A stretch of DNA of 64,000 nucleotides from Nanobdellota archaeon (GCA_018221045.1 JAAOXT010000004.1:25117-89116); one strand, 5' to 3'. Counted from the first letter of the stretch, positions 22,953-64,000 are shown. Program-made: numbers and translations. Notes: generated from the letters alone by a model not told the origin.

Positions 22953-23026
22953 GCCTTTGTAGCTCAGCGGTTTAGAGCACCTGCCTCGTAAGCAGGGGGT
23001 CGTGAGTTCAAATCTCACCAAAGGCT
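22953..23026 (+). tRNA. tRNA-Thr (CGU)
   Basis: Hand-folded. Acceptor GCCTTTG/CAAAGGC. D arm GCTC/GAGC. Anticodon stem CCTGC/GCAGG with loop CTCGTAA. T arm GTGAG-TTCAAAT-CTCAC. Confidence 0.9.
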
Positions 23027-37076: not shown

Positions 37077-37183
37077 TATCGTGTTTGAAAAGGATTCGAA
37101 AAGGTTTTTTAAACGTTTTGATTTCATTATTTTAAAGGTAAAAAGGTTTAAAAACCTTGCAAAAGAATTAAATGTTTTGACAG

Positions 37184-37258
37184 GGACCCGTGGCGCAGCC
37201 TGGATAGCGCGACAGCCTTCTAAGCTGTATGTCGGGGGTTCAAATCCCTCCGGGTCCA
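37184..37258 (+). tRNA. tRNA-Arg (UCU)
   Basis: Hand-folded. Acceptor GGACCCG/CGGGTCC. D arm GCGC/GCGC. Anticodon stem ACAGC/GCTGT with loop CTTCTAA. T arm GGGGG-TTCAAAT-CCCTC. Confidence 0.9.
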
Positions 37259-37314
37259 TATTATGGAACAATTCAAAGAATTGTGGGGTTTAACAATTCC
37301 TTATCTAAAAAAAG

Positions 37315-48042: not shown

Positions 48043-49182
48043 TTACCTTAAGAATTCGATTCCGAGTTCTTTCTCTATTTTGCGTTTTCTCTGGTCTTCA
48101 AAAGTGCTTGACGGCCCGAAGATTTGGGGTGATTGAACTCCAGTCACTATGAGTATGGTCCTTATAGTGTCTTGTAAGTCGTTGCTTATTTGCGCTCCCC
48201 AAATAATTTTCGCGTCACCATCCAACTTCTCGCTAACGGTCTGAACAACTTGTCTTGCTTCTTCTAACGTCATGTTCGCTCCACCTGCAACATTGATTAA
48301 CGCTCCTTTGGCCCCGGATATGTCAACATCCAACAATGGGTTCTGAATCGCTTTCTCAACGGCTTCAATCGCCCTGTTCTCAGTATCGCTCTCTCCCACG
48401 CCAATCATCGCCACTCCTCCTTCTTTCATAACCGCTTTAATGTCCGCGAAGTCTAAGTTAATCAGGCCTGGCTTGGTTACCATTTCAGCAATTCCTTTCA
48501 CGGCGTTGGTCAGTATTTCGTCCGCAACCTTAAAAGCAGTGAACAACGGCAGGTCTGGCGCAATTTCTAACAACTTATCGTTTGGAATGACTATCAAAGT
48601 ATCAACTATTCCTTGAAGTTTTTCCAATCCTTCTTGAGCGTTGGCCATTCTCTTCCTTCCTTCTATACCAAAGGGTAGGGTTACAACACCAACTGTTAGC
48701 GCACCTATTTTTTTAGCTACTTCAGCTACTACTGGAGCGCCTCCAGTACCTGTTCCGCCACCAAGTCCGCATGTTATGAACACCATGTCCGCGCCTTGGA
48801 GGGCCTGTTTTATTTCTTGCTCTGTTTCTTTAGCTGCTTCTTCACCTTTTTTAGGGTCCGCGCCTGCACCTAATCCTCCTGTAACGTCTCTTCCTAGCAA
48901 TAATTTTTTATCAGCTAGTGCGACGAGAAGGTCTTGAGCGTCTGTATTCATAGCAATTAATTCTGCTCCTTTAATACCTACGTCCGTCATTCTTGTTATC
49001 GTATTGTTACCTGCTCCTCCAACACCGACAACTTTTATCGCTGCTTTCTTTTTAGATAATAGTTCTTCCAGTTCGGCGTCAACGTCAAGTGTTCTGGACA
49101 TGTCAGGTCTAACTTCTTTTTCATAGCTGGGTTCTTCTTTTTGGATGCCAAATCCTTTTGCAGAAGACATAAGATTCTCCAT
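48043..49182 (-). CDS. ftsZ: Cell division GTPase FtsZ (paralog B)
   Basis: GVGGAGNN and [12 protein letters not shown]. The position upstream of secE-spt5 is typical for archaeal FtsZ1. Confidence 0.9.
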
Positions 49183-50439: not shown

Positions 50440-52794
50440 TCATATCATGGGATATTGATAATCATTATCAGGGTAATCGTGTAACTCGTAAGGGTCAACT
50501 GCAAGAGGGGTATCAGATGTATAACTATATGGGTGGCAGTAATTAGAATCTGTATAATAACCTAAAAGGTCAATGAAGTGTATTTGTCCAAAGTTCACGA
50601 TGACGTCACAGATGTATGTTCTTTCCGCCCAGTCCATTATTTTTTGCACGTTGTAGTCTCCTACGCTTCGCTCGCATCCGAGTGGCGTCCACGTCGTTCC
50701 TTTTGGGCAGCAGTACTTTCCAGGAGTTTGGTCGAGTCCAGAGCAAGTTGAGCCTGGCTGGCACTCACATGAGCTAGTGCATTCTTTACCCGCTACGCTG
50801 GCGCTTACTTTGCTTTCGTATTTTTGTATGCATTCTTGCATTGAATCCCTTACCTGCGGGTAGCGCGGAGCCATGCACACGTCTGTCAGGCAGTTAGCGC
50901 AAACACCACCTATCAGCTCGGTTACTTGTCCAAACCCGGGTATTAGCATCCACCAGCAGCACCCCAACCAATTGGATTCAAGACAGTTCCTGCTTCGCTG
51001 TATCATCCCCCCATCAATAGCGTTATTGGCTTTGTTAGAATCATAATACTTAACATTTTCTCCGCTGTAATCAAATTTTTTATTCATAAAGCACATTTTG
51101 ATTTCTTGCTCGTTGTCCATTAATTCTTCTCCCGCATCATCAATTCTTATCATGTACCCGCAAGCATCCCTATCCTGTGCTGGACAATTTGGGTTGCAAA
51201 TAGCTTCTTCTGAATCATAAAGTGGACAATAGGATATACTCATGTCTTGCGGACAGTTCTCACAGTTCTCACCTAAATCAGTCTCTGCCACCCCGTTCCC
51301 GCAGTAAGGGAAGTAATTATAGTCCAGGAAACCTAATTTGTTTTCGTAGACAGGTATTGGCACGTTTTGACCGTAATCCGCTGACGTGATCACGTCGTAG
51401 TCGTACTCGTAATCATAGCAGTACTTCCATTCCCTGACCAAATCATAACTCGCCTCATTACCTGCAGAGCATGTTTTACTTATCTCAAAAATCGAGGTTT
51501 GGGAGCCTGAAACGGATTCTAGTTCACATTCTTGCCACGTGTCGATTGCCGTGCACTTGTACTTGGCGTTTTGCACGTAAATGTATCCTGTTCCTGTAAA
51601 GTCTCCTCCAGAAGCGCTTATTATGTCTTCATCAAATACTGAGAACGTTTTATCCATCCTATTGATTGTTATGCTATTCTTATCTCCTGACAAGTCCGTG
51701 TAAACGTCTTCTTGTGGTATCGAATCTATTGCGTGTTTGCCCGCGCCTTTCAGGTAACATTCTTCCTGTTCAACCAAGTCTAAACAGACTGAAGGGTTTA
51801 ATTTTGCTTCGTCGCAACTGTCTTGGCAAAACGTTTGGACTGAACCGCAGTTTTTCCATTTTTTGATACCATTCTCTACCACGATGTTTTCATCCTCATC
51901 TCTTACATAAGGGTCCACGTAGCAGTCTCCTGACGGGTTCCATTCAGTGGTTCCTGCTTCAGCGTCCCAATTGGTTTCCCAGCTTAACGGCCAATCGCTT
52001 GTCGTATGGCTTATGCTTGTGTCTCCTTTTATGGCGAAGGTAAATTTGATTGGTAGGCTCAGGATTTTTTTCTCCATCTTGTTAGGGAAGTTCATACAGC
52101 AAAGGATTTTTGGGTCTGACACGTTGATGAATGATGTTGAGTTATATCCCGCGCAGTTCACGCCGCTGCAGGACATGGGCTCTTGCACTCCTCCTTGACA
52201 GTCTTCATCGTTCCCGTCCTCTAATCCATCCATGTCATCATCCTCCCCATTGTTACATACATCCATACATTGACCGTCCTCACAACCAATTCCAGTTCGG
52301 GAGTTCCACTCGTTTGGAGAACAGTCGTAAACGTTTTTTCTTTCCAGTGGGCATCGAAAAGTTTTTTCAAAAAGACCGAAGCTTATGAGCCTCCAACAAC
52401 CTTCCGTGTCCCCGTAACAGTCTTTGTCTGCAGGGCAGATGTAATCATAGCCAGTTATTCCGCAAGTTCCAGTAAACCACTCTTCAACATTCTTCACGCA
52501 CCTTTTGCCTGTGTGTTCTAGCGTGCACGCAGTGTTTTCTGATTGCGTTATCTCTCCGTCCATTGAAACATCTACGTAAATTGTTTGGTCGTCTTCCACG
52601 TTTTGGAATGGGTTGACCGTTTCAGGCGGGGCTTTGTATTCTGATAAAGCGCTTCCAAGAACCATGACAGTGTTGCCAGACTGGTTGTTGTAATACATTT
52701 CCATGAAACCGTTGTAAATGTCTGACGGGTTCGCTGCAATAACTGTTGGAATAATGAACAAACAAGTGGTTATGAAGAGTAATTTTTTATCCAC
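50440..52794 (-). CDS. Cluster gene S: 784-aa secreted, extremely Cys-rich protein
   Basis: Sec-type signal MDKKLLFITTCLFIIPTVIAA. About 50 Cys by hand count. Acidic motif CNNGEDDDMDGLEDGNDEDC. Overlaps gene R by 8 nt. No family recognised. Confidence 0.7.
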   Translation of the reverse strand: MDKKLLFITTCLFIIPTVIAANPSDIYNGFMEMYYNNQSGNTVMVLGSALSEYKAPPETVNPFQNVEDDQTIYVDVSMDGEITQSENTACTLEHTGKRCVKNVEEWFTGTCGITGYDYICPADKDCYGDTEGCWRLISFGLFEKTFRCPLERKNVYDCSPNEWNSRTGIGCEDGQCMDVCNNGEDDDMDGLEDGNDEDCQGGVQEPMSCSGVNCAGYNSTSFINVSDPKILCCMNFPNKMEKKILSLPIKFTFAIKGDTSISHTTSDWPLSWETNWDAEAGTTEWNPSGDCYVDPYVRDEDENIVVENGIKKWKNCGSVQTFCQDSCDEAKLNPSVCLDLVEQEECYLKGAGKHAIDSIPQEDVYTDLSGDKNSITINRMDKTFSVFDEDIISASGGDFTGTGYIYVQNAKYKCTAIDTWQECELESVSGSQTSIFEISKTCSAGNEASYDLVREWKYCYDYEYDYDVITSADYGQNVPIPVYENKLGFLDYNYFPYCGNGVAETDLGENCENCPQDMSISYCPLYDSEEAICNPNCPAQDRDACGYMIRIDDAGEELMDNEQEIKMCFMNKKFDYSGENVKYYDSNKANNAIDGGMIQRSRNCLESNWLGCCWWMLIPGFGQVTELIGGVCANCLTDVCMAPRYPQVRDSMQECIQKYESKVSASVAGKECTSSCECQPGSTCSGLDQTPGKYCCPKGTTWTPLGCERSVGDYNVQKIMDWAERTYICDVIVNFGQIHFIDLLGYYTDSNYCHPYSYTSDTPLAVDPYELHDYPDNDYQYPMI

Positions 52795-55375
52795 AGCGGT
52801 TCACCTCCAGTCCCCAACAAGAACCGTATCGTACCACAAAGTATTCGTTTCCAAGAATATCTGTTCCAGAGCAACAGTTTTGTGTTTCTGGGTTAAAAAG
52901 CGATATGAATGTTCCGGCAGCGCAGTTAGCGCAACAGTATCCTGTTTGCTCGCAAACACTTACACTGTTATAATTAAATGTTTTTTGAGTTACTGTGCTA
53001 GTAGTAAACCCTGAGTTATGTGTACATGTAACTGTTAATTTCACGTTTATACTTGATTCGGGATACCCCTGCGCACAATCAGTATCGTGTTCCACAAACG
53101 TGATTAAATCCCTTGGGTTTTCGGTTGGCGAAGAAGGTGAAGGGTAAATAATGTCTCCATCCCTGTTCTTAACGAGCCAATGATAAACACAGTCGGTTTC
53201 AGGTATCCCACATTGCAGGTTGGAAGCTATTTTTTGGCTTGATCCTTGAGCGTTTAACCAATAATCCACTGAATCCACAAAAGTTATGCCACCACACCAC
53301 CACCCTCCTGAATACAATATCTTACCAATTGGCAATATGACTGCGTCGGGCACGGGCTTGGCGTCAAGTGTAATACTCATAGTAGTGCAGTTCGTGTGCC
53401 TGGTTTGAGGGTTGTCAACGCTCTGCGTTGTGCTCGGAGGACTGCCCGAAACATAGTTAGCTGTCACGCATACCTTCACGTCAGTCCTGGCGTAATTACT
53501 CCCCTCAGGAAACGTTAATTCCATCCTGGTTTGGTCGTTGTAACTGCTAGGCTGCTCAGTTCCCCCTATTTGATTGCCATTAGTGTCGTAATTTCTAACA
53601 AACCATCTTATTGTCTGTTGTCTTGCGAAGTGTTCGGACAAGTCGAAATAAGCTCCTACGCTTTGGCAAGCACTTCCTTGGATTAACTGGTCGTTGAAAG
53701 AGTAATAACCTTTTATTTTCCCTGAAAGCGCGCCGTAAGCCTTAAACAACTGGTCTTTAAATTCGTCGTCGAATCTTGTCAGGCTCTGCACTTTTTTGTC
53801 AGAGTAAGGCGGGGCTTCTTCCAAATCGTCGTTATCATCATTCCAAACATCATCGTAGAAGTCCCTGACCCTCTGCCTATCCGTGCTACCCCAATCTATC
53901 GTGCCGTCAGAGTCTATTTTGATTAAAGACACATCATCTGACATCTCTCTGGGCTTGCAGGGAACGCATGAAGTATTGTACGTTTCCATGGCGTAAGCGT
54001 AAGGGCTCAAATCACTATTAGTGTCAACGTAATCGATGCTGGCTTCGTTGTCCGTGAACGTGTAATTGTACCCGTCGTGCGATGCCGCAAGGCCTCTTTC
54101 AGAGTTGAACTCGTCAAGAATCATTTTTTCCACTCGGGAAGCGTCGTAAACACAGGTTGCACTGCAGTTCACAGGATCCTCTCCTGAACAACCTCCTGTC
54201 TTCACGGGTTCTCTGCTTGTTATCTTGCACGTCGGGTTTTGTGTGCTGAACTCTGGACTAGGGGTCTCGTACCAAACGAATTCCCCAACGCTTTTCTTAA
54301 TTCCTGGAACGCAACCCGTCCATTCACCGTCAACGCACATGCTGACCATTGTGGTTTTGCAGTTATTGCTGCCGCAGTCTTGGCTTGTTTCATTGTAGTT
54401 TTCAGTGTTGAAAGCGAATCTTTGTTTTAGCACGTGAACGTCGTTCACCCCGCTCGAGTAGGAGCCTGTGCACTGCCTTTCTTCGTAGAACTCTGTTATC
54501 GTCGAGTCCGGAGAATACTCCGCTCCGTAGCTCGTGTCAGCCGAGTACGTTCCTGTTTGGTCTATCCTGTAAGCGCAGGTTTCGTTGTGCGTGATGATTG
54601 AGTATTTGTTGAGTTGTTGTTTGGCCATGGTTTCGTAGTCTTTGTTTAAGACAAAGTTTTTGGCTTCTTCGTAAAGGCTTGGGAATTTGTTCTCCACCAC
54701 GTTGTGCACGAGGGTTGTGGCCGTGTAGCTGACGGATGGCTTGCCTTGGTAGCTCGCGCCAAGAAGTCTTATCTTGTCGTCGCCCACTATGAACCATTGA
54801 TTTTCAAAGTAATTTCTATCTGATGACGGGCATAGGTCTCCTCCAATGTCGCTGTTTTTCACTCCGCACGACGCCAGTTGGTAAACGTATTTTACGTTGA
54901 AGTTCAGTCCGTAAATTATTTCTAGACTGTTTAGGAAGTTCTGGTCTGGCGTGGCGGAGAATCTTTCAGCTATAAGTGTTATGTTATTGAGTATTGACGT
55001 GAATTCTGGAATGCAGAAGGAGGGATTGGATGACGCGTTGTACCAGTAAGGCACTACTTTTTCTGGCATGTAATTGTGTTTTGGGAGTGTGTCTAAGTAA
55101 CCGCATTCCTGGTCTCTTATTTGACTTTGGTTTCCGCCGTAACCCCCTCTGCTTCCTATTTGGTAAATTATTTTTTCGAAAGTGTATCTTCTTTCCCTGT
55201 CCAATAGGAATTTGATGTTTTCCGCTGTTTGGGCTGTCTGAACTATCTGTGTTCTATAAAAAGGCAAGGCAGATTCTGAGGAAGCTCTTATCGCAATGTA
55301 TCCCATCCCGAACGCTGCTAGCGACAATATTGATATTGTTACAAGTATGTAAGCTAAGGATTGGGCTTTTTTCAT
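52787..55375 (-). CDS. Cluster gene R: about 862-aa Cys-rich surface protein with a class III-like signal (MKKA|QSLAYILVTISILSLAAFG)
   Basis: ATG 55375 abuts the stop of gene Q. The track start 55456 lies inside Q. The long ectodomain has many Cys and ends in a CCANCAAG...CCSG...CWGLEVNRCG knot. Confidence 0.7.
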   Translation of the reverse strand: MKKAQSLAYILVTISILSLAAFGMGYIAIRASSESALPFYRTQIVQTAQTAENIKFLLDRERRYTFEKIIYQIGSRGGYGGNQSQIRDQECGYLDTLPKHNYMPEKVVPYWYNASSNPSFCIPEFTSILNNITLIAERFSATPDQNFLNSLEIIYGLNFNVKYVYQLASCGVKNSDIGGDLCPSSDRNYFENQWFIVGDDKIRLLGASYQGKPSVSYTATTLVHNVVENKFPSLYEEAKNFVLNKDYETMAKQQLNKYSIITHNETCAYRIDQTGTYSADTSYGAEYSPDSTITEFYEERQCTGSYSSGVNDVHVLKQRFAFNTENYNETSQDCGSNNCKTTMVSMCVDGEWTGCVPGIKKSVGEFVWYETPSPEFSTQNPTCKITSREPVKTGGCSGEDPVNCSATCVYDASRVEKMILDEFNSERGLAASHDGYNYTFTDNEASIDYVDTNSDLSPYAYAMETYNTSCVPCKPREMSDDVSLIKIDSDGTIDWGSTDRQRVRDFYDDVWNDDNDDLEEAPPYSDKKVQSLTRFDDEFKDQLFKAYGALSGKIKGYYSFNDQLIQGSACQSVGAYFDLSEHFARQQTIRWFVRNYDTNGNQIGGTEQPSSYNDQTRMELTFPEGSNYARTDVKVCVTANYVSGSPPSTTQSVDNPQTRHTNCTTMSITLDAKPVPDAVILPIGKILYSGGWWCGGITFVDSVDYWLNAQGSSQKIASNLQCGIPETDCVYHWLVKNRDGDIIYPSPSSPTENPRDLITFVEHDTDCAQGYPESSINVKLTVTCTHNSGFTTSTVTQKTFNYNSVSVCEQTGYCCANCAAGTFISLFNPETQNCCSGTDILGNEYFVVRYGSCWGLEVNRCG

Positions 55376-55845
55376 GGCGTGAACGTCACCCCTTGTTTTT
55401 TGAACATCATGACTATTGTTGGCTCGCCTGAGGGCGAGTAAACTTTTATGAAACATTGTAGCGCGTATTTTTGGGTGGCTTCATCGCTGATTATGCTTCT
55501 TAGCTCTGAGCTTGAGCCGAAGCGAACGTGCATTCCCACGCTTTGCTCAAACCCCGGGTTTCTTTCAAGTTCTTCTTGGAACGCGAAGTATGACGCTGAC
55601 CTGTTGTAAAGGCTTTGGTATTTTTGTTTGAGGAAAGTGTCTGGAGTCATTCCTGTTTTTGAGTAGTCACTGCTCACAAGGTTTTCAAGAAGGTTTGTGC
55701 ACATACTGCTGGTTTCAGCGTCTTTTATTGAGAGTATTGCTTGCATGCTCACAGAGTCCACGAACATGGACATCACTAAAAGCAGTCCCATTATGATTAT
55801 CGTGCTTATTATCACCCCTACTCCTGTAAAGTCTCCTTTTTTCAT
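55372..55845 (-). CDS. Cluster gene Q: 157-aa pilin-like protein (MKKG|DFTGVGVIISTIIIMGLLLV)
   Basis: Short basic leader ending in KG, then a hydrophobic helix of about 22 residues, then a globular part of about 120 aa with only 2 Cys. ATGA coupling with gene P. Confidence 0.65.
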   Translation of the reverse strand: MKKGDFTGVGVIISTIIIMGLLLVMSMFVDSVSMQAILSIKDAETSSMCTNLLENLVSSDYSKTGMTPDTFLKQKYQSLYNRSASYFAFQEELERNPGFEQSVGMHVRFGSSSELRSIISDEATQKYALQCFIKVYSPSGEPTIVMMFKKQGVTFTP

Positions 55846-56702
55846 ACTTGCACCTCGAATTGTGTTGCTTCACCAAGTTTTTCTGCAGTGTGGTATTGTA
55901 CGCAGTCGTACAAGTCCCAGCGGAAGTTATCCGGGTTGGGCGCGCTTACTCCACAGTACTTAAAGCCAAACAACAGGTTTGCCAGAAGGGTTTCGGTTTC
56001 TGGGATACAGTTCTCCCAAGGAGGTCTTATCAGGGCTGAAACGATTTGTGGTGATGGTGACGCTTCGCAGAATTTGCCGAAGAATCTTCCTAAGTGCTTG
56101 ACCTGGTCTCCTGTTTGCTTGTCTTGGTAAACAATGAACACTGGATAACTGTATTGGTAGACTTTATCTCCTAGGCTTGAGTTGCATGGAGTGGCCCACA
56201 TACAAGGCACCCCCCTATAACTCGTGGAATCGGGGTCAGGATAAGATGGTATGAAGTATGACCTGTCGTGCGTTTTGGTGAAGAACCACGTGTTATCGTT
56301 TTCAACGTCTTGAACAACGATGGAGTACAGGATGGCGGGTCTTTCAAACGGGTTGTAAGCTCTTCCTCCAAGACTTATTTCAGGGTCGTCTTGTTTTATG
56401 CATTCCATGTTCTTCCAGTTTTCGAGTTTGTAAGCGTCCAGCACTCCTGGATAGATTCTTTGCTTGTAGTACACGTTGTAGTCTGGCTCGTCCGTTATCA
56501 GCATGTCTTTTTGTTCGAATGCTAGGCAATCAGCGCTGGAAAGCATTTTTCTGGAGAACACGAGGAATCGGGTTTCGCTTTGAAGCGAGTCAATGCTGAA
56601 CCCAATGTTTTGAACTTTGAACACTAAAGTGATGACTACTATAAAGAACAATAAGACTAGCCAGAGCATGTATATAGGTCCTTTCAAACTGAAATCAGTC
56701 AT
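55842..56702 (-). CDS. Cluster gene P: 286-aa single-pass protein (MTDFSLKG|PIYMLWLVLLFFIVVITLVF)
   Basis: N-terminal helix after SLKG. No gap to the stop of gene O. Confidence 0.65.
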   Translation of the reverse strand: MTDFSLKGPIYMLWLVLLFFIVVITLVFKVQNIGFSIDSLQSETRFLVFSRKMLSSADCLAFEQKDMLITDEPDYNVYYKQRIYPGVLDAYKLENWKNMECIKQDDPEISLGGRAYNPFERPAILYSIVVQDVENDNTWFFTKTHDRSYFIPSYPDPDSTSYRGVPCMWATPCNSSLGDKVYQYSYPVFIVYQDKQTGDQVKHLGRFFGKFCEASPSPQIVSALIRPPWENCIPETETLLANLLFGFKYCGVSAPNPDNFRWDLYDCVQYHTAEKLGEATQFEVQV

Positions 56703-58505
56703 TTATGTTCCTCCCGCCCAATTGCAGAAATCTGTGTTGTCAGTGCAGTAACCGTCTGGCCCGCAACAATAACTTATCGGACAGCCGTCTTCAGCGCCAA
56801 GCATTGTCGGGTCTTCCGAGTCGTGAGTGCATTGCTTGCATTGGTTGAAGTCTTGGCAAAAACAGTTTGGTTGCTCGCAGGAACCGTGTTTTGGAATGCA
56901 TGGCCCGCACTCGCCGGTTTCTAAGCAACAATTGTTTGTGTTGATGTCATCAAACGTTTTTGAAACGCATCCTTTGCGCGGGTCGTCTTCTTCATTCACG
57001 CTTCCGTCGCAGGAAGGGTAGTGCGTGACAACACAGTTTTCTTGGGATGTCAGGATTATTCTATCATCGTCGTGGGATAAGGTGTTTAGACTGTCAGCGC
57101 ACACTTCGTAATCCAGGGACGCGTCAAGAGTTGTGCACCAGTCACTCCACGAATAAATTGCTGTTATTACGTGAGGGACATCAATCATTAGTTCGAATCC
57201 TTTGCTCGTCACGTCTTTTTTCAAGTTCACGCAGATCTCGTTGACCCATCCTCCATCGATTCCTCCCACTCCGAACTCGTATCTTACCAATGGTTGTTCG
57301 GATATTGTTTGGGTTTCTGGACTAGTGTATTCTGCTGGGATTAATCTTGAAGTTATGCCTTCCACGCTTTCTAACTCTGGGTAAAATGTTTTGACGTTGC
57401 CGATTGAATACGCTATGTTTGGAATTGGAAGGTTTTCGTTCGCGTTTTTTAAAGAGGTTTCAGTGGTTGGTTCACCGTCTTGTTCGATCCACGTGAAAAG
57501 TCCCTTCGGGCTCATAATTTGTTTTTGCTGACAAATCACCAGTGTTTCATCGTGGCAGTGACCATCCTGCCCGCAGTAATAAGTTTCAGGACATCCTTCC
57601 TCGCTTCCTGATTCTGAAGGGTTGTCAGGGTTGTACGTGCAGGGCACGCATTCGTACGAACCTGACACTCGTTTACAGTACTCGTTGTCTTGACAATCAT
57701 CGCACCAACATCTGTTAACAGTACCAACAGTACCCGTTCCTATTTCCAACAATTTTTCGGCATTTGTTAAACCAGTGCATGGAGGATTGTAAGATTGTCC
57801 GTTCGTGTCGGAAAAATTTATTCTGAACCCGGGGGTTAGGCTGAGGCTTGTTGTTTTATTGGTGAACACGCTGTTCTCCATTTGCGCGTAAACGCTCATC
57901 ACGTCCTGTAATAACCTTATCATTCCCACGTCTTCCGCAATGATTACGGGCGTCGTGCCCTCCTTATCGAAGAACAGTCCGCTTGTCAGCGAATCGTAAA
58001 AAGTTCTTCTTTGTTTGGATACGAGAACCGAATCTGTTCTTGGTTGAATGTATAATGGAATGCTTTGTCTTTCAAGGGCTTTTTCTTCAGCGAAGTCTGC
58101 GAAGTGCTGGCTTGTTGGAAAGCTTTGGCTTCTCTTTTCCTCGTCAACAGTGTACTCAACTTTCATGGACTCGTAGGCAAGCGTGTTCACGCCTTGAGTG
58201 CAAGGAGCTGGAGTGGTTTTAACGAAAGCAGGGTCCAGTCTTAACGAGGTTATGTTGATTTCTTCTCCTTGGCAATAGTAAATTCCTTGTTCCCATTTGC
58301 AGTCCGGCGTGCCGTAGTACAGCACGTAAACGTTGTCCGGGACGGCTGTGCAAGCTTCTCTTAGGGATGCAACGTCGTAAACGAGCAGAGCCATTTTTTT
58401 TCCCATGTCAAAGCTTGGCGCCATCATTCTTTGAACGACGAACGCTGACCCCACCACTAGTATCGCTGCCGCGACCAGTGCTCCTACTGTTTCTATTGAC
58501 GTCAA
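56703..58505 (-). CDS. Cluster gene O: 600-aa Cys-rich protein with an N-terminal helix (MTSIETVGALVAAAILVVGSAFVV) and an internal Cys-knot repeat
   Basis: The repeat CVPCTYNPDNPSESGSEEGCPETYYCGQDGHCHD resembles CKQCTHDSEDPTMLGAEDGCPISYCCGPDGYCTD. Confidence 0.7.
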   Translation of the reverse strand: MTSIETVGALVAAAILVVGSAFVVQRMMAPSFDMGKKMALLVYDVASLREACTAVPDNVYVLYYGTPDCKWEQGIYYCQGEEINITSLRLDPAFVKTTPAPCTQGVNTLAYESMKVEYTVDEEKRSQSFPTSQHFADFAEEKALERQSIPLYIQPRTDSVLVSKQRRTFYDSLTSGLFFDKEGTTPVIIAEDVGMIRLLQDVMSVYAQMENSVFTNKTTSLSLTPGFRINFSDTNGQSYNPPCTGLTNAEKLLEIGTGTVGTVNRCWCDDCQDNEYCKRVSGSYECVPCTYNPDNPSESGSEEGCPETYYCGQDGHCHDETLVICQQKQIMSPKGLFTWIEQDGEPTTETSLKNANENLPIPNIAYSIGNVKTFYPELESVEGITSRLIPAEYTSPETQTISEQPLVRYEFGVGGIDGGWVNEICVNLKKDVTSKGFELMIDVPHVITAIYSWSDWCTTLDASLDYEVCADSLNTLSHDDDRIILTSQENCVVTHYPSCDGSVNEEDDPRKGCVSKTFDDINTNNCCLETGECGPCIPKHGSCEQPNCFCQDFNQCKQCTHDSEDPTMLGAEDGCPISYCCGPDGYCTDNTDFCNWAGGT

Positions 58506-58509
58506 AGTT

Positions 58510-59544
58510 TTATCCTCCTACTGCTTTGATGAATATTGGGTGAAAGACTCTTTCTTCGTTGCTATTCACTGTTTGGTATGCTTTTTCGTTTTGGGTTGCG
58601 CTTATCACTTCCGCGCTGGTTTCACTCCAACCCATGAGAATTGGTATGAACGCTTGTGACGGGTTCGACGGGTTTTTGAGTCCTATTATTGCTGGTGCGC
58701 CTTGGTTTTCGCAACCCAGTTCTGACAGTTTTTTGCATGTTATGATCTTGTTGAAGAATGGGAAGTCCATTGGCCAGGACGCTCCTGCAATGGAATAAGC
58801 AGACGCTAAGAACGTGGCCCTTGAGAATTCTTCCAGCGCAGTGTAGGCCGTGCCGTAAACTCCTTCAATATCGTAAGATATTGTTTCGCCATTAACGTTG
58901 TTCACGACTAAGTATGTCATGCTTCCTACCCCGAAAACATTTTTTTCAGGGGTGAAAGCGTAATCCTTTGTTCCCACCATGTCAATTGCCTTCGTGTTTT
59001 GGTCAAAGATGGGTTGTTCTCCTCCAAAAAAATAAAGAAAATTGTTATCTGATGGAGGAGTGCTCTGGCCTAAACTCATTATCCAGTTAAGAACATCCAT
59101 AAACGTGTTAGTGTTCACGCTAGCTAAGCAGACGCAGTTATCACCTATTATTCCTCCTGTTCCCGCTGCAACGTTTGCATTGCACTTTTGGAGTTCTCCT
59201 TCAAATTTTTGTTTTTCCTGCGCTAATTGCTCGGACTTGTCAACAGACCATATCCAAAAGCTCTGCATTGTTGGAAGTTGTTCGTAATCTTCTCCCAAAG
59301 TATCAATTTCGGGGTGCGTTTGTATTATCATATAACCATAAGGTATTTTGAAGCCCGTGTCCGCCGCGTAACCGTTATCGCAGGCTCCTTGCAGCACTCT
59401 AGTGAATTTTGCGAAGCTAGCTCTGGCCTCAGCCCCTGCAAGAAAGCTTATTCCTCCTGAAACAACTATTGCTCCTACAACGAGAACAAACACTAAAACT
59501 AGCACGTCCTTAATTATTTCTCCATATAACAGCATTCTCGCCAT
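58510..59544 (-). CDS. Cluster gene N: 344-aa single-pass protein, paralog of gene L
   Basis: SFAKFTRVLQGACDNGYA, YMIIQTHPE and CVCLASVN align with AFEKFTTGISSACVNGYA, WNIIQVYPD and CLCLIRAP in gene L. Confidence 0.7.
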   Translation of the reverse strand: MARMLLYGEIIKDVLVLVFVLVVGAIVVSGGISFLAGAEARASFAKFTRVLQGACDNGYAADTGFKIPYGYMIIQTHPEIDTLGEDYEQLPTMQSFWIWSVDKSEQLAQEKQKFEGELQKCNANVAAGTGGIIGDNCVCLASVNTNTFMDVLNWIMSLGQSTPPSDNNFLYFFGGEQPIFDQNTKAIDMVGTKDYAFTPEKNVFGVGSMTYLVVNNVNGETISYDIEGVYGTAYTALEEFSRATFLASAYSIAGASWPMDFPFFNKIITCKKLSELGCENQGAPAIIGLKNPSNPSQAFIPILMGWSETSAEVISATQNEKAYQTVNSNEERVFHPIFIKAVGG

Positions 59545-59555
59545 TTTTTTTTTGT

Positions 59556-59750
59556 TTAAGACACTTTTATTTGGGTTAATCCTTCACTAGCGTTGCCTAA
59601 CAAGTTTTCAGAGCCTTGTGTGACGTTCCCGATGTTAGCTTTTCCAGACTCAATGTTCGGAAATATGAACAAGATTACCACAACCGCAACTATCAGGATT
59701 ATTATTAGTGTAAAAACCATTTTAAAACTCATTTCCGATCCCTTTTTCAT
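59556..59750 (-). CDS. Cluster gene M: 64-aa pilin-like protein (MKKG|SEMSFKMVFTLIIILIVAVVVILFIF)
   Basis: KG leader, hydrophobic helix and a short polar tail. Confidence 0.6.
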   Translation of the reverse strand: MKKGSEMSFKMVFTLIIILIVAVVVILFIFPNIESGKANIGNVTQGSENLLGNASEGLTQIKVS

Positions 59751-59791
59751 TGGTTTAAATCAAAGTGTTCAGAATTAATAAAAGTTCTTCT

Positions 59792-60748
59792 CTAGCTCGG
59801 AGTGCTCATGTACACTGGTTCAAAAGTGCTGGAGGACTCTGATTTTTCAAAAGTGATCAGTGAAGCTTGAGAGTTCTCCACTATCATGAACACAGGATTC
59901 AAGTCCATACCTTCTTTCATGGCGAGGATTGCTGAATTGTTGTAAAAGTTGGGTTGCGCGTTTCCGCATTTCATGGAGTTCATTGACGTGCAGGCCTCGA
60001 ACTTATCGATGAATACTAACGGCCACTTAGTAAGAGAATCAATTCCTATCAATAATGATACTGGTGTGAAAAAGTAGATTGTGTCAAGGCTTTTCAGGAC
60101 CGCGTAATCGCTTTTTTCAGGGTTGTGGAAATCTTGTTTCAGAAAGCTTATGTAATAAGGAATTACTTCGTTTCCGTTGTTCGAATCTATTTTAGGAAGA
60201 GGGTTTGGTGCATAGCTCATGATTCTAAGGTTTCTGAAGTTTTTAGTGGTTATTAGCGGCACGGGTACTTCCCCTGAATTATACGCGTCACTATCTAAGT
60301 TCAGGTCAAGGATGGACGGCGCTCTTATGAGGCACAGGCAGGGCGAGCCAATGGCTTGTCCTGTTCCTTCCCTGAATTGGCTGTTGCAAGAGTTTTCCGT
60401 TGTGTTAGTTATGTCGATTACTCTTTGCACTTTGTTTCTTAGTGCTTCGAATAAAGGGGAGAAAACTATCATTCCTTCCTCCTCATTCAACTCGTTTACT
60501 ATGTCTTGCATTCTTTCAGCGTCAGGGTATACTTGTATTATGTTCCAATCATCTGACAGTGAGAAGTCCTCTATTTCCGCGTATCCATTCACGCATGCAG
60601 AGCTAATCCCTGTAGTGAATTTTTCGAAGGCTATGTGGGCGAAAACAGCTCCGAGTCCTGAGATTATGCCGAAAGCCACTACGGTTACAATTAGTATGAA
60701 CACTGCTAGGACGGCGAAGTCGAATATTAGGTTTCCCCAATCCTCCAT
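59792..60748 (-). CDS. Cluster gene L: 318-aa single-pass protein, paralog of gene N
   Basis: See gene N. The + strand ORF 60219-60755 is its antisense shadow. Confidence 0.7.
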   Translation of the reverse strand: MEDWGNLIFDFAVLAVFILIVTVVAFGIISGLGAVFAHIAFEKFTTGISSACVNGYAEIEDFSLSDDWNIIQVYPDAERMQDIVNELNEEEGMIVFSPLFEALRNKVQRVIDITNTTENSCNSQFREGTGQAIGSPCLCLIRAPSILDLNLDSDAYNSGEVPVPLITTKNFRNLRIMSYAPNPLPKIDSNNGNEVIPYYISFLKQDFHNPEKSDYAVLKSLDTIYFFTPVSLLIGIDSLTKWPLVFIDKFEACTSMNSMKCGNAQPNFYNNSAILAMKEGMDLNPVFMIVENSQASLITFEKSESSSTFEPVYMSTPS

Positions 60749-60800
60749 TGTTTAAGTAGAAGGGTTTTGCGCGTAAATAAAGGTTTTCCTGATATCATGA

Positions 60801-60828
60801 GTTATGATAAAGTGGTTATGATAAAGTG
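60801..60828. repeat. Perfect 14-nt tandem duplication GTTATGATAAAGTG x2 spanning the stop codon of gene K
   Basis: Read directly: 60801-60814 is identical to 60815-60828. Confidence 0.9.
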
Positions 60829-61220
60829 CAGGTCCCGTCAACGCATTCATAACCAGAGTAAATGCATTCACTGTTTTTTGTGCAGGGTCCTCCTCTCCAT
60901 CCACCGCAACTGCCGTCTGTCAGGCATCTTCCCACGTCTTCTCCGCTCTTGCACGGCCTGTTAATGCAATCCGGGTCGTCGCAGTCTATCAGGAAGTCGC
61001 CGTCATTGTCTTTTCCGTCAGCGCACTCGTTCTCAACTCCTGAAGCAGTAGTGCCTATGTCTCCTACTCTACCAGCGGTTTCCTCGCTTCCTTGAGCTGA
61101 TTGGCCGGATATTGAGCCGAAGCCTTGTGTTAGGAAACTTTGTTGGCTTGTAAAGAACACTATCGCAGCGATTAATACTACTAATGCGATTATTATCATC
61201 ACGATTTTATTGAATTCCAT
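60816..61220 (-). CDS. Cluster gene K: 134-aa pilin-like helix (MEFNKIVMIIIALVVLIAAIVFF) fused to a Cys-rich module
   Basis: CADGKDNDGDFLIDCDDPDC followed by PCKSGEDVGRCLTDGSCGGWRGGPCTKNSECIYSGYECVDGTC, which is paralogous to the C-terminus of gene J. Confidence 0.7.
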   Translation of the reverse strand: MEFNKIVMIIIALVVLIAAIVFFTSQQSFLTQGFGSISGQSAQGSEETAGRVGDIGTTASGVENECADGKDNDGDFLIDCDDPDCINRPCKSGEDVGRCLTDGSCGGWRGGPCTKNSECIYSGYECVDGTCTLS

Positions 61221-61241
61221 CTTTTTTTGGGTTGGTTTTTT

Positions 61242-61259
61242 AAAAAAAAATAAAAAAAA
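61242..61259 (-). terminator. Oligo-T tracts (T8 and T9 on the coding strand) after gene J: candidate archaeal intrinsic terminator
   Basis: The + strand reads A9-T-A8. These are the longest T runs I noticed on the coding strand within the cluster. Confidence 0.4.
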
Positions 61260-61277
61260 TGTAAGTTTTTACTTTGT

Positions 61278-61682
61278 TTATGTTGGACAAGTCTCTGCAG
61301 TTATGCACGTGCCATCACAGCACATTTGACCTGAATACGAACAGTCCAGATTTTTTTCGCAAGGCCCGTTCATCCATCCTCCACAAACACCTATGGACAA
61401 GCATTCTCCTGTTTCGACACCTTCACTGCAGGGTTTTCCCAAGCAGGCCTTTAATTCACATTGTGGTGGTACAGGACATCCTGTTCCTGTTACAACTCCT
61501 GGCAGGCTTCCAATGGTTTCTTCTGTTTGAGAGCCTTGTTCGCCAGTGGCTGTGGATAGTCCTCCTAACCCTCCTGCTAGTGTTCCTAATTGGGATGTGA
61601 ATAATACAATCACTCCTATTATGACCACTATTATTATCAAGAGGGTTGCTATTGTTTGGAACTCCATTCCTTTGTTATTCAT
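61278..61682 (-). CDS. Cluster gene J: pilin-like protein with leader MNNKG|MEFQTIATLLIIIVVIIGVIVLF and a Cys-rich C-terminal module
   Basis: ATG 61682 lies 5 nt after the stop of gene I. ATG 61667 would start at MEFQTI, as in the paralogs. The track start 61697 is a GTG inside gene I. Confidence 0.7.
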   Translation of the reverse strand: MNNKGMEFQTIATLLIIIVVIIGVIVLFTSQLGTLAGGLGGLSTATGEQGSQTEETIGSLPGVVTGTGCPVPPQCELKACLGKPCSEGVETGECLSIGVCGGWMNGPCEKNLDCSYSGQMCCDGTCITAETCPT

Positions 61683-61687
61683 GATTA

Positions 61688-61882
61688 TTACGCGCACTCC
61701 GGGGCGTCCGGGTTTATGAAACAGTTAACGCTTCCTGTTGCTTCTGTTGTCGCATCCCCGCTGGTTGTTTGCAATTGTCCAGTCGCATCCCCTGCAGGAC
61801 CCATCTGGGTTACGAAAAATATTATGGCGACCACCGCGACTATCAAAATGATTATTAAAGTAAATATGGTTTGAAACTGCAT
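61688..61882 (-). CDS. Cluster gene I: 64-aa pilin-like protein (MQFQTIFTLIIILIVAVVAIIFF)
   Basis: ATG 61882 lies 1 nt after the stop of gene H and is preceded by GGAGGAG. The track start 61915 is a TTG inside gene H. The tail has 2 Cys (CFINPDAPEC). Confidence 0.65.
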   Translation of the reverse strand: MQFQTIFTLIIILIVAVVAIIFFVTQMGPAGDATGQLQTTSGDATTEATGSVNCFINPDAPECA

Positions 61883-61883
61883 T

Positions 61884-62120
61884 TTAAACTCCTCCCTCCA
61901 CGCATTGCCCGTCAACGCAAGTGAATCCTTCGTCGCATTGAGCGTCTGAAGCGCAGAAATTGGTTATGGTTCCCGTGGCTACGGTGGATTGTTCTTGAGT
62001 CGCCCCGCTCAGTTCTTGTTGAGGCACCGTTAGCTGGCCGAATTGAGTTACGAAAACTATTATCACTGCAATGATGACTATAAGAATGATGAGCAATGTT
62101 GCTATAGTCTGGAATTCCAT
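61884..62120 (-). CDS. Cluster gene H: 78-aa pilin-like protein (MEFQTIATLLIILIVIIAVIIVF) with a 4-Cys tail
   Basis: Tail CASDAQCDEGFTCVDGQC. There is no in-frame upstream start before a stop codon (checked by hand). Confidence 0.65.
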   Translation of the reverse strand: MEFQTIATLLIILIVIIAVIIVFVTQFGQLTVPQQELSGATQEQSTVATGTITNFCASDAQCDEGFTCVDGQCVEGGV

Positions 62121-62146
62121 TTTCTTTCTTCTATTTTTAGTGCGTG

Positions 62147-62158
62147 TTTTTTAATAAA
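62147..62158 (-). promoter_or_regulatory. Candidate internal TATA box (TTTATTAAAAAA on the coding strand) ending 26 nt upstream of the gene H ATG
   Basis: AAAGTTTATTAAAAAAC resembles the GTTTATA-type elements upstream of lrp and the tRNAs. It implies a near-leaderless mRNA. Confidence 0.3.
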
Positions 62159-62173
62159 CTTTTTCATGATTTC

Positions 62174-62356
62174 TTAACCGCCAGGCGGGGTGTAACCCGA
62201 TATTAGGTCTCCTGCTTCAGTGGTTTTATCTCCTGTTTCCCCAGTTAATTCTTCTGTGGGAGCGTTCATGGTTCCGAACCCGGTTATGAAAAATATTATT
62301 ACCACTACCACGACTAGTATTATGATTAATAGCGTGAATATGGTTTGAAACTGCAT
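62174..62356 (-). CDS. Cluster gene G: 60-aa pilin-like protein (MQFQTIFTLLIIILVVVVVIIFF)
   Basis: Lies 7 nt after the stop of gene F. No in-frame upstream start. The polar tail has no Cys. Confidence 0.6.
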   Translation of the reverse strand: MQFQTIFTLLIIILVVVVVIIFFITGFGTMNAPTEELTGETGDKTTEAGDLISGYTPPGG

Positions 62357-62363
62357 TTTATTT

Positions 62364-62792
62364 TTATCTCGTTCTTGTGGAAGTTCTTCCCCCTGTTACG
62401 GTCGAGCGATCGCAGTCCGGTGAACCGGTCCAGCCGATAGTTCTTGTCTTGCCGTCTTGAGTGCTTGCAGTGCATGTTGGCAGGACTGCTTCGCAGTAAG
62501 TTGTTCTGAGTGTTCCTGTTTCGTCAGCTATGTCTAAGGATAGCGTGCAGTATCTCGAGTCCGACACGTCTTGCTTTGAGTAAACCATCAGGTTTAGTTC
62601 GTTGCATGCTTGCTGGCAGGAAGTTCTTAACGCGGTTAGGTCTGATCCTCCTGTCGCGCCCGCGCCAACAGTGCTTATCTGTCCGAAAAGTTGGGAGCCG
62701 CCTGTCATGAAGAACACTCCTATGACTATCAGCACAAGCAAAGCCATTATTATTATGATTATCATGTTTATGGGCATTCCTTGGGCTTTCAC
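62364..62792 (-). CDS. Cluster gene F: 142-aa pilin-like protein (MKAQG|MPINMIIIIIMALLVLIVIGVFF) with a 6-Cys globular part
   Basis: The track start is GTG 62792, which gives a KAQG leader. The first ATG (62777) would start at MPINM. Confidence 0.6.
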   Translation of the reverse strand: MKAQGMPINMIIIIIMALLVLIVIGVFFMTGGSQLFGQISTVGAGATGGSDLTALRTSCQQACNELNLMVYSKQDVSDSRYCTLSLDIADETGTLRTTYCEAVLPTCTASTQDGKTRTIGWTGSPDCDRSTVTGGRTSTRTR

Positions 62793-62829
62793 AACCTATT
62801 TTTTAGACGTTTAAACTTAAATACTTTAT

Positions 62830-63159
62830 TTAAGAAAGTTGCGCGCAAAACCCTTCTACGCAGTTTAAGCCCTGACAACATGGCTCTTCGCCTCCGCATT
62901 CTTGTCCGCTGGTCTTGCAAGTGCAAACGCTTTCCGAGCAATAAAATCCTCTGCAGCACTTTATTCCTTGTGACACGTCGCAGAAAGTTCCTTTTCCAAC
63001 GCATCCCGCAATGTTGGCAATGGTTGACGAGCCCGACTTGCCGAGTTCTTCTCCACCTTCTTTTACTTGTTCTAACGGGCTGAGACCAAGCAGGAAGGCC
63101 ACACCTATCATAAGTAGTGCTAAGATTAATACCATAACTAAGACTAATGAATTTTTCAT
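62830..63159 (-). CDS. Cluster gene E: 109-aa N-terminal helix plus two tandem 6-Cys knottin-like modules
   Basis: Module 1 is C-x6-C-x7-CC-x4-C-x4-C and module 2 is C-x6-C-x5-CC-x4-C-x4-C (CVGKGTFCDVSQGIKCCRGFYCSESVC-T-CKTSGQECGGEEPCCQGLNCVEGFC). Confidence 0.7.
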   Translation of the reverse strand: MKNSLVLVMVLILALLMIGVAFLLGLSPLEQVKEGGEELGKSGSSTIANIAGCVGKGTFCDVSQGIKCCRGFYCSESVCTCKTSGQECGGEEPCCQGLNCVEGFCAQLS

Positions 63160-63302
63160 GTTGAGGGTAATAAACTGGTTGGTATTTGTGAGTAGGCTTG
63201 GGCTTGGTCTTTAGATGTTTCGAGCATTGGAACCCCGAATAAAAGGACTATTACAAGCATTATCAGGGCGAGCACTATTATTATTATTGTTTTCATTTCC
63301 AT
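63156..63302 (-). CDS. Cluster gene D: 48-aa pilin-like protein, absent from the ORF track
   Basis: Hand translation gives MEMKTIIIIVLALIMLVIVLLFGVPMLETSKDQAQAYSQIPTSLLPST. The stop overlaps the gene E ATG (ATGA). Confidence 0.55.
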   Translation of the reverse strand: MEMKTIIIIVLALIMLVIVLLFGVPMLETSKDQAQAYSQIPTSLLPST

Positions 63303-63305
63303 TGT

Positions 63306-63449
63306 TTATTCACCGAATAATCCGAACGCTAAATCGTTCATTTTCCCGCCTTGCTCTTGAGCTTGACCTAAATATTGGATTCCTAACATGACTAGCATCG
63401 CTACGAACATTACTATAAGAATCATTATCATCACTGTTTTCAGTTCCAT
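63306..63449 (-). CDS. Cluster gene C: 47-aa pilin-like protein, absent from the ORF track
   Basis: Hand translation gives MELKTVMIMILIVMFVAMLVMLGIQYLGQAQEQGGKMNDLAFGLFGE. Lies 7 nt after the stop of gene B and 3 nt before the gene D ATG. Confidence 0.55.
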   Translation of the reverse strand: MELKTVMIMILIVMFVAMLVMLGIQYLGQAQEQGGKMNDLAFGLFGE

Positions 63450-63456
63450 TTGCTTA

Positions 63457-63627
63457 TTATCCCCATCCCATGCTTTGGCCCATAGCGTTTATGACTGTCC
63501 CGCTCTGCTCCCTCCAAGGAGTGATTAAGAATATTATTAATAAAACCGCAATGACTAATCCTATCACAACCAGTATTATTATGAACGTCTGGTCTATCTC
63601 GAAACGGGCCTTATTATTTAATTTCAT
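63457..63627 (-). CDS. Cluster gene B: 56-aa pilin-like protein (MKLNNKA|RFEIDQTFIIILVVIGLVIAVLLIIF)
   Basis: ATG 63627 overlaps the stop of gene A (ATGA). The track start 63660 lies inside gene A. Confidence 0.6.
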   Translation of the reverse strand: MKLNNKARFEIDQTFIIILVVIGLVIAVLLIIFLITPWREQSGTVINAMGQSMGWG

Positions 63628-64000
63628 TCCACAACCTCTTTGATGCATATCACCACACAATCTAAAGGCGCGCGGTCAGCGTTTTTTATTACCGCATTAT
63701 TACAGTAGTCGCTGGTAATAAATGGTTTTGCTGACGCCGCAGAGTCATAATAAGATACATATACTTTCCCGTTTTTTAGTGTTTCGTCAAGCAGTTTATT
63801 ATCCATTTCCATGTTTGTGCATAAAGTTCCAGGGGAATCATAATCAAAGCACAATAGAACTTTATTCGGGTTCAATAATTCTTTATAGGTTTGGCCGCGG
63901 TCCGGAAAGTATTCTTGGTCATATTCATCGTATAAGCCTCCAACCTCTTTATTCTTTTCGAAATCGTACAAGAAAGCGTAGCATTTTGATAAAGGTTGTT
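63624..64000 (-). CDS. Cluster gene A: C-terminal part of a protein whose 5' end lies beyond the window
   Basis: The frame stays open upstream of the track's TTG start (...QPLSKCYAFLYDFEKNK...) to position 64000. The visible part has 6 Cys. Confidence 0.55.
   Translation of the reverse strand, partial: QPLSKCYAFLYDFEKNKEVGGLYDEYDQEYFPDRGQTYKELLNPNKVLLCFDYDSPGTLCTNMEMDNKLLDETLKNGKVYVSYYDSAASAKPFITSDYCNNAVIKNADRAPLDCVVICIKEVVE

Follow-up and report, generated by a model that had tools for sequence, protein, structure and literature searches.

A conserved array of pilin-like and cysteine-rich genes in a DPANN archaeon is probably the subunit-and-adhesin half of a type IV filament operon

DPANN archaea rely on physical contact with host cells, and the hardware by which they attach is largely unknown. 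Here we analyse a 64,000-nucleotide stretch of DNA from a Nanobdellota archaeon (GCA_018221045.1 JAAOXT010000004.1:25117-89116; hereafter the window), in which positions 50440-64000 hold a block of genes, lettered A to S from the window's end downward, for pilin-like and cysteine-rich surface proteins. A first-pass annotation of this sequence had found no recognisable assembly machinery among these genes and had proposed a candidate undescribed surface filament or attachment system, which raises the question of what machine, if any, such proteins serve. We conclude that the block represents an unusual form of machinery already known and is neither machine-less nor a categorically new system: it is probably that half of a single large operon for an archaeal type IV (type IV pilus-like) filament which encodes the subunits and adhesins. 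The organism is a DPANN archaeon, the source metagenome-assembled genomes being labelled 'Nanoarchaeota' or 'Candidatus Parvarchaeota' archaeon at NCBI.

Part of the evidence for this conclusion lies past the window's edge. In a close relative, a 93.9-kb contig of 'Candidatus Parvarchaeota archaeon Meg19_1012_Bin_507', the same-strand array runs on upstream of A through four further cargo genes (U4, U3, U2 and U1) to a platform gene and an ATPase gene, which correspond to positions ~8-12.5 kb beyond window position 64000. The ATPase matches Pfam PF00437 (T2SSE) at 61.2 bits against a cutoff of 24.9, scores 110 bits with the TadA family and 99 bits with FlaI, has CpaF, Archaeoglobus GspE (AfGspE) and FlaI as its best PDB relatives, and carries ~360 extra N-terminal residues. 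The platform aligns with Pfam T2SSF over profile positions 4-124 of 125 (E=5e-4, 20.4 bits); its gene is overlapped by the ATPase end by 34 nt, and its own stop overlaps the U1 start by 4 nt. Genes upstream of the ATPase lie on the opposite strand, so the operon starts at the ATPase; in full it spans 25 genes and 26 kb (ATPase, platform and 23 cargo genes), of which the window holds the last 19. The window's own 110,944-bp contig (NCBI 'Nanoarchaeota archaeon', GOU97 tags) encodes a near-identical platform, named 'type II secretion system F family protein' by NCBI, and a 1862-aa giant, with accession numbers that are consecutive save for one unseen, fitting the 51-aa gene. Because a T2SSE ATPase and a TadC/T2SSF-like platform are coupled to the block, the block is cargo of a known kind of machine. 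The reported lack of machinery is true inside the window alone, where neither the block nor the remaining sequence holds an ATPase, platform or peptidase gene; it is a window-edge effect, since extension past 64000 brings in both the ATPase and the platform on the same strand, translationally coupled to the cargo. The described rise in protein size along the block is likewise an artefact of truncation, a 1854-aa gene lying further upstream. What survives of the original operon reading is its layout of pilin-like subunits, minor pilins and large adhesin-like proteins; its proposal of an undescribed system does not, a known machine having been found.

Within the window, the block comprises 18 complete ORFs and one 5'-truncated ORF (A), in line with the at least 19 minus-strand genes first counted from 64000 down to 50440. 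From A/B to R/S, the junctions measure -4, 7, 3, -4, 37, 7, 53, 1, 5, 57, 67, 41, 11, 4, 0, -4, -4 and -8 nt, a packing that ranges from an 8-nt overlap to an 11-nt gap except at five AT-rich spacers of 37-67 nt. These values match the earlier description at every junction but Q/R, thought to have no gap; with MKKA (55375) taken as the start of R, that junction is a 4-nt overlap. TTTATT(A/T)A-like boxes stand in the spacers 24-34 nt (for H, up to ~40 nt) before F, H, K, L and M, and those of F, K, L and M are conserved in a distant species described below; the five boxes may be internal archaeal promoters that boost particular subunits. No RNA family match falls inside the block, and its GC content is like that of the rest of the window. 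The amino-acid composition is strikingly different: cysteine makes up 4.34% of block residues against 1.02% in the rest of the window, in agreement with the cysteine richness first remarked on, and lysine 4.2% against 10.7%. A multihaem or iron-sulfur role for these cysteines was considered and rejected as unlikely because the block products contain no CxxCH motifs and few CxxC motifs.

The N-termini further set the cargo apart. All 18 complete block products begin with a hydrophobic helix, as the first-pass annotation had stated (N-terminal 19-mer with a mean Kyte-Doolittle value of at least 1.9 in each), and such a helix is present in 23 of 23 cargo proteins, five of them read from the close relative, versus 2 of 47 other window ORFs. 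Class III leaders were assessed at the level of the motif (a basic leader of few residues that ends in G/A at -1 and is followed by a hydrophobic helix); [KR][GA] plus helix within the first 15 residues is found in 9 of 23 block proteins and in none of the 47 other window ORFs, and all seven of the K-G/K-A leaders originally listed are present. Leader-bearing cargo comprises U1, U4, B, F, J, M, Q and R, and the orthologs of B, F, J, M, Q and R in the distant species keep K-[GA] (KAQG in F) as the residues around it vary: R reads MKKA↓QS in one and MKG↓QS in the other, and J reads MNNKG↓MEFQTI and MNMNKKG↓IQFQTI (arrows mark the end of the leader). The leaderless proteins C, D, G, H, I and K start with M-E/Q-x-x-T/K-I/V, such that their start residue is the +1 residue after the K-G cleavage site of J, and none has an in-frame start upstream. 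O starts with M-x-S-I/V-E, which places Glu at position 5; U2, U3, A, E, L, N and P are helix-anchored with no leader motif; and S alone has an ordinary Sec signal peptide. Several of these proteins form paralog families, namely G/H/I/J/K (together with the F N-terminus; J/K paralogy E=1e-27), C/D, L/N and A/U4, the last pair sharing a DCWxQYGxGKYxPLxG motif. Seven proteins of 47-64 aa are approximately bare helices, like Flp and Epd pilins; in E, H, J and K, a linker rich in Gly/Ser/Thr bears a small cystine-rich head.

Comparison with other genomes indicates that these are genuine and constrained genes. Nucleotide identity to the close relative is 92.5-93.7% over the block and 97.6% over the flanking alba-FKBP-ftsZ genes. 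A more distant species, represented by two abutting Logan contigs (L005 and L002), has 21 of 21 comparable cargo genes (all but G and H) in the same order at 43-81% amino-acid identity, keeps 253 of 279 aligned cysteines (91%), and retains the position of the block by alba-FKBP-ftsZ. Between the close strains, purifying selection is apparent in ratios of nonsynonymous to synonymous divergence (dN/dS) of 0.05-0.29 wherever a gene has substitutions enough for a judgement; H gives 0.94, from very few changes. Because order and cysteines are conserved in a second species and dN/dS is low, the block genes are, by all comparative indications, real, encoding constrained, expressed proteins with structural cysteines. 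Gain and loss are also visible at a finer scale. The E ortholog in the relative has one knottin module versus two in the window (6 of 6 aligned cysteines are kept), so a module has been gained or lost. Among the MQFQTI/MEFQTI mini-pilins between F and J (61688-62356), three are present in the window and one is visible in the distant relative, where copy number is uncertain because the L005 end and the L002 start both break at the repeat.

Divergence between the close strains is unevenly spread. The alba and FKBP genes of the flank show a synonymous divergence (dS) of 0.09; dS is 0.58 in J (77.7% amino-acid identity, with indels), 0.44 in S (86.5% amino-acid identity) and ~0.28 in O, P and R, forming a divergence mosaic across J (61278-61682), S (50440-52794) and R, Q, P and O (52787-58505). 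This pattern would be consistent with allele exchange or recombination at the proteins that are most exposed, or with allelic diversity of long standing there, and adhesins would be expected to show it.

Further support for the coupling of motor and cargo comes from two metagenomic sister loci (L007 and L008), with ATPases 60% identical and platforms 33% identical, both of which keep the ATPase-platform adjacency. Downstream, each has ten small-to-medium proteins, eight or nine of which bear an M(N)KK[GA] leader before a hydrophobic helix. By hhalign, F matches a 122-aa MNKKG↓ protein of a sister locus at 96.6% probability, and J matches a 60-aa protein at 88% probability. This 60-aa protein scores 30.1 bits (E=3e-7) and J scores 18.8 bits (E=1e-3) against Pfam PF16982 Flp1_like, whose cutoff is 33.5 bits, which suggests that both are remotely related to Flp1_like, with neither attaining the membership cutoff. 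One-to-one homology between block cargo and sister-locus cargo is not supported beyond the N-terminal segment, and matches of P, Q and R to sister-locus cargo made by eye were below significance. The ATPase/platform pair thus defines a small clade of loci with complete cargo turnover, among which the block locus is the most expanded cargo version seen.

The genes upstream of the ATPase have features of their own. In three of three clade loci, this region carries ~180-aa paralogs with several predicted transmembrane helices and a GFF(E/D)V..PF motif (contig L009 4379-6041 and 2098-2628, both plus strand; L007 64-1556; L008 6004-7670). There are three to four copies, three in tandem, with the fourth L009 copy ~1.7 kb further upstream; they match no Pfam family and may be an unnamed accessory module. 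Low-complexity proteins, coiled-coil by eye, are encoded divergently from the ATPase promoter region (L009 6055-7242 and 7247-7639, both minus strand), and a related one occupies the equivalent place in L008 (7657-8253, minus strand). Finally, L009 1-3691, ~4-7 kb upstream of the ATPase, encodes a second cysteine-rich giant (1285 aa, partial), a 208-aa CARDB-domain lipoprotein-like protein and a Cys-rich 160-aa protein, which may be another surface-protein cluster.

The data above show the gene content, the run of the operon into ATPase and platform, conservation, purifying selection and motif enrichment; from these we infer a mechanism for the type IV filament that involves leader cleavage, filament formation, a major subunit and an adhesive role. 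Cargo proteins would enter the membrane via their N-terminal helix; a class III signal peptidase with its gene elsewhere would remove the K-[GA] leaders (U1, U4, B, F, J, M, Q and R); and the ATPase and platform would pull the helices out of the membrane and join them as a polymeric fibre. Its shaft would most likely consist of F, the best candidate for a major pilin, and/or the Flp/Epd-like subunits that are short and headless (G, H, I, M, B, C and D). The adhesins would be large disulfide-rich proteins with pilin-type N-termini (the 1854-aa U1, R and possibly O), carried along the fibre or capping it; J, K, E and H would show small cystine-knot heads on flexible linkers, and the likely use would be attachment to a host cell or surface. 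A bolder and rather doubtful version holds that the filament is partly built from 'pre-processed' pilins: C, D, G, H, I and K, and perhaps O, would skip the prepilin peptidase, and the fibre would display tethered cystine-knot modules and giant adhesins for host capture.

Several observations weigh against a type IV filament. The ATPase was seen only in the 93%-identical relative, outside the window's own DNA; the T2SSF match of the platform lies below the Pfam cutoff of 25.2 bits; and both sister platforms lack a Pfam match. A search of all larger membrane ORFs in the sequence within reach, which is part of the genome only, yielded no class III signal peptidase; it covered the 64-kb window, the sister loci and 7.7 kb on the upstream side of the ATPase. 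In F, K and J, a Gly-rich linker directly follows the helix, which is not usual, a typical pilin head packing on the helix. Nor does any cargo protein reach the cutoff of a pilin, archaellin or adhesin family in Pfam or NCBIfam; 0 of 19 products match the curated pilin and archaellin families (PF04021 Class_IIIsignal, PF07790 Pilin_N, PF01917 and NCBIfam equivalents) at E<=0.1, so these profile searches agree with the initial failure to place any product in a known pilin, archaellin or S-layer family. Structure models of N and Q were of low confidence, and the Q fold search was uninformative: the AlphaFold2 model of N was unusable (4-sequence alignment, pLDDT 36.8), and Foldseek with the single-sequence Q model (pLDDT 53.7) returned noise only.

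Homology searches with the cargo were sparse in general. The only above-cutoff Pfam/NCBIfam match among block products is knottin-type, for E (Conotoxin, 27.8 bits, cutoff 25.1). A PDB sequence search found no relatives of R, S, the giant U1 or the platform profile, and a profile of the pilin-like N-termini gave a single PDB match, to the core of the Ignicoccus adhesion filament, which at E=3 is not significant. Two relatives only of protein N were detected among 5.8e9 proteins, and these led to the two comparison genomes used above; an L/N-pair HMMER profile run against 1.84e9 representative proteins returned only N, L and one spurious repeat; and a metagenome scan and homolog search with U1 gave nothing. 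This shows that family-based annotation overlooks almost the whole cargo, and that the dependable handle on such systems is the ATPase/platform pair.

These observations also bear on other accounts of the locus. It is possible, albeit unlikely, that the ATPase and platform build a short pseudopilus or bindosome-like envelope structure and no long pilus, holding cysteine-rich proteins at the surface or pushing the Sec-exported S outward in a type II secretion-like manner. The build of E, F, J and K (helix, flexible linker and small domain) is better suited to display than to a shaft, S does have an ordinary Sec signal peptide, and class III-signal binding proteins that functionalise such machineries are described in the literature; however, the seven short headless subunits look like Flp/Epd shaft pilins, and no substrate-binding-protein domains were returned by the Pfam/NCBIfam search of block products. 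We consider it very improbable that the block is a set of unrelated Sec-dependent surface proteins, either membrane-anchored or secreted (an envelope or S-layer substitute), merely adjoining a pilus ATPase/platform pair, with coincidental K-G leaders. The 14 of 23 cargo proteins with no K-[GA] motif, the lack of a pilin family match above cutoff, and the lack of a peptidase in the sequences searched would be in keeping with such an assortment, but the platform gene is translationally coupled into the cargo, the leader motif is confined to it (9/23 vs 0/47), leaders are kept across species while adjacent residues change, 8-9 of 10 downstream proteins in the sister loci have clear class III-type leaders, and the leaderless paralogs begin at the +1 residue of J. 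Integration of a virus or mobile element encoding small membrane proteins and cysteine-rich spikes is a scarcely credible origin for the block and was rejected, since the block's orphan products, many tiny transmembrane ORFs, and J, S, O, P and R alleles more diverged than the flanks are outweighed by PHROG searches with no matches of note, no IMG/VR match, the lack of integrase, capsid and replication genes, a GC content like the rest of the window, and an alba-FKBP-ftsZ position kept in a species 43-81% identical.

Features of the probable type IV filament operon are collected in Table 1.

Table 1. Genes and spacers of the operon in transcriptional order. Coordinates are window positions; arrows mark the end of a leader or signal peptide.
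Feature	Position	Strand	Description	Remarks
ATPase	upstream of platform	same strand	760 aa, T2SSE (FlaI/TadA/CpaF-like)	close relative
Platform	upstream of U1	same strand	710 aa, 8-9 transmembrane segments, T2SSF/TadC-like	close relative
U1	upstream of U2	same strand	1854 aa, >100 Cys, start MKG↓IIEPVAAAIVG	close relative
U2	upstream of U3	same strand	272 aa, Ig-like Big_7/Big_13	close relative
U3	upstream of U4	same strand	51 aa	close relative
U4	next upstream of A	same strand	362 aa, leader MKG↓MTITF	close relative
A	63624..64000	-	3' part of 271-aa N-terminally anchored protein	ORF runs off window; full length (271 aa) in relatives' contigs (L001/L004)
B	63457..63627	-	56-aa headless pilin-like protein, MKLNNKA↓RFEIDQ + helix	ortholog in distant species MKKG↓RIEIDQ; between-species identity 81%
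C	63306..63449	-	47-aa leaderless pilin-like protein (MELKTV...)	C/D paralogs
D	63156..63302	-	48-aa leaderless pilin-like protein (MEMKTI...)	C/D paralogs
E	62830..63159	-	109 aa, N-terminal helix + two C-C-CC-C-C knottin-type modules	spacing C-x6-C-x7-CC-x4-C-x4-C fits six-Cys knottin (by spacing only)
Spacer before F	62793..62829	-	AT-rich, TATA-like box TATTTAAGTT ~30 nt before F start	candidate internal promoter; box and its distance to F kept in L005 (distant species)
F	62364..62792	-	142 aa, GTG start, MKA↓QG(M/L)PIN + helix + Gly-rich linker + 6-Cys domain	leader KAQG[ML]PIN conserved upstream of called ATG; between-species identity 81%, 6/6 Cys kept
G	62174..62356	-	60-aa leaderless headless pilin-like protein (MQFQTI...)	G/H/I/J/K family
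Spacer before H	62121..62173	-	AT-rich, TTTATTAAAA ~30-40 nt before H start	candidate promoter
H	61884..62120	-	78-aa leaderless pilin-like protein (MEFQTI...), 4-Cys tail	
I	61688..61882	-	64-aa leaderless pilin-like protein (MQFQTI...), GGAGG ribosome-binding site 5' of ATG	ortholog MQFRTIF likewise leaderless, with Shine-Dalgarno sequence
J	61278..61682	-	134 aa, MNNKG↓MEFQTI + helix + Gly/Ser linker + 12-Cys knot domain; hypervariable between strains	
Spacer before K	61221..61277	-	AT-rich, T9A6 ~20-30 nt before K start	candidate promoter; conserved in L002
K	60816..61220	-	134-aa leaderless J paralog (MEFNKI...), acidic double-disulfide motif + Cys knot	10/10 Cys kept in relative; acid_disulf_rpt E=8e-8, below cutoff
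Spacer before L	60749..60815	-	AT-rich, CTTTATTTA ~25-34 nt before L start	candidate promoter; conserved in L002
L	59792..60748	-	318 aa, N-terminal helix	paralog of N
Spacer before M	59751..59791	-	AT-rich, TTTATTAAT 24-33 nt before M start	candidate promoter; conserved in L002
M	59556..59750	-	64-aa headless pilin-like protein, MKKG↓SEMSF + helix	weak ComGC N-terminus match (E=1e-3); ortholog MKKG↓ESSAF
N	58510..59544	-	344 aa, N-terminal helix, invariant Gly8, 6 conserved Cys	
O	56703..58505	-	600 aa, 35 Cys, start M(T/A)S(I/V)ETVGALVAAAILVVG, Glu at position 5	TTG after AGGAGG
P	55842..56702	-	286 aa, N-terminal helix anchor, SLKG motif of doubtful meaning	72% identity, 8/8 Cys kept; SLKG is SFKG in L002 ortholog
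Q	55372..55845	-	157-aa minor-pilin-like, MKKG↓DFTGVGV + long helix, then three predicted beta-strands	ortholog MKKA↓AFTGLGV; beta-strands from low-confidence AF2 model, pLDDT 53.7
R	52787..55375	-	862-aa cysteine-rich adhesin-like protein, canonical MKKA↓QS leader	ortholog MKG↓QSLAY; 21/22 Cys kept
S	50440..52794	-	784 aa, 51 Cys, ordinary Sec-type signal peptide (…VIA↓ANP)	last operon gene; 50/51 Cys kept in relative

The rest of the window is housekeeping in character, with aminoacyl-tRNA synthetases, GatDE, two FtsZ, MinD and ribosomal proteins. The two FtsZ paralogs and the MinD-like ATPase (12124-13197 and 13312-14100, plus strand; 48043-49182, minus strand) fall in 64 kb of a very small genome. 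On the minus strand, 34845-37271 encodes an 808-aa possible envelope protein that is anchored at its C-terminus and gives Ig-like matches (FixG_C, HYDIN-type); 32320-34161 encodes a protein with a signal peptide, a Lon_C (S16) protease domain and a C-terminal anchor; and 4689-7226 encodes 845 aa with many transmembrane segments and no Pfam match, glycosyl-/oligosaccharyl-transferase-like by eye. Plus-strand tRNA genes are tRNA-His(GTG) at 18569-18641, tRNA-Thr(CGT) at 22953-23026 and tRNA-Arg(TCT) at 37184-37258; long ORFs over tRNAs (e.g., the N-terminus of 34845-37271) are ORF-extension artefacts.

Nanoarchaeal pilus ATPases with no identifiable cognate pilins have been noted before (Makarova et al., PMC4858521). 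The block locus offers a concrete, conserved candidate set in which a pilus motor is directly coupled to 23 orphan subunit/adhesin genes, along with fast-diverging alleles in its largest surface proteins and subunits that may bypass leader cleavage. Its notable features are the +1-starting paralogs, pilin stems with knottin-like heads, and a lineage-confined 23-gene cargo that includes a 1854-aa adhesin whose N-terminus is of pilin type. Regarding the heads, E resembles inhibitor-cystine-knot (knottin) peptides in its cysteine spacing and in passing the Conotoxin cutoff, but differs from them in that the knot is archaeal and fused to a membrane/pilin-like helix; common descent with animal toxins is not implied. 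To our knowledge, there are few reports of knottin-like domains in archaea, none of them fused to a membrane helix. A plausible functional analogue is found in ultrasmall episymbiotic Saccharibacteria, where a genome-reduced symbiont finds and binds its host via type IV pili (PMC11623550). The block may serve in host binding; the Saccharibacteria pili differ in being bacterial type IVa and in having no sequence relationship to the cargo.

Among better-known filaments, the locus shares short headless pilins (47-64 aa here) and a multi-gene cluster with many minor pilins with Epd and Tad/Flp systems, and its link to Tad/Flp extends to the ATPase, whose best family and PDB matches are TadA/CpaF, and to the near-threshold Flp1_like matches. 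System 1, the Epd pilus of Methanococcus maripaludis, has two platform genes and a dedicated peptidase, EpdA, in its cluster (bioRxiv 10.64898/2026.04.22.720090). In contrast, the block locus has one platform gene, no peptidase in the cluster, in the 7.7 kb upstream or downstream, no PF04021 Class_IIIsignal match, and several leaderless subunits. Also on record are type IV filament loci that combine a long ATPase with one platform gene and encode, beside large adhesins, pilins of which some have the class III motif and some do not (bioRxiv 10.64898/2026.04.22.720090), and by layout the block locus looks most like this 'system 2' style, known mainly from Euryarchaeota (Makarova et al. 2016, PMC4858521; Sivabalasarma & Albers 2026, bioRxiv 10.64898/2026.04.22.720090). 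It too has a long ATPase (760 aa) and a single platform gene, combines pilins that carry the class III motif with pilin-like proteins that do not and with large adhesin-like proteins, and presumably has its peptidase encoded outside the locus (here, none in the sequence reached). Unlike system 2, the block locus has 23 cargo genes, drawn from families with no detectable relatives outside the lineage (2 matches in 5.8e9 proteins; 2 real ones in 1.84e9), and an extreme cysteine content that exceeds 100 Cys in one of its proteins.

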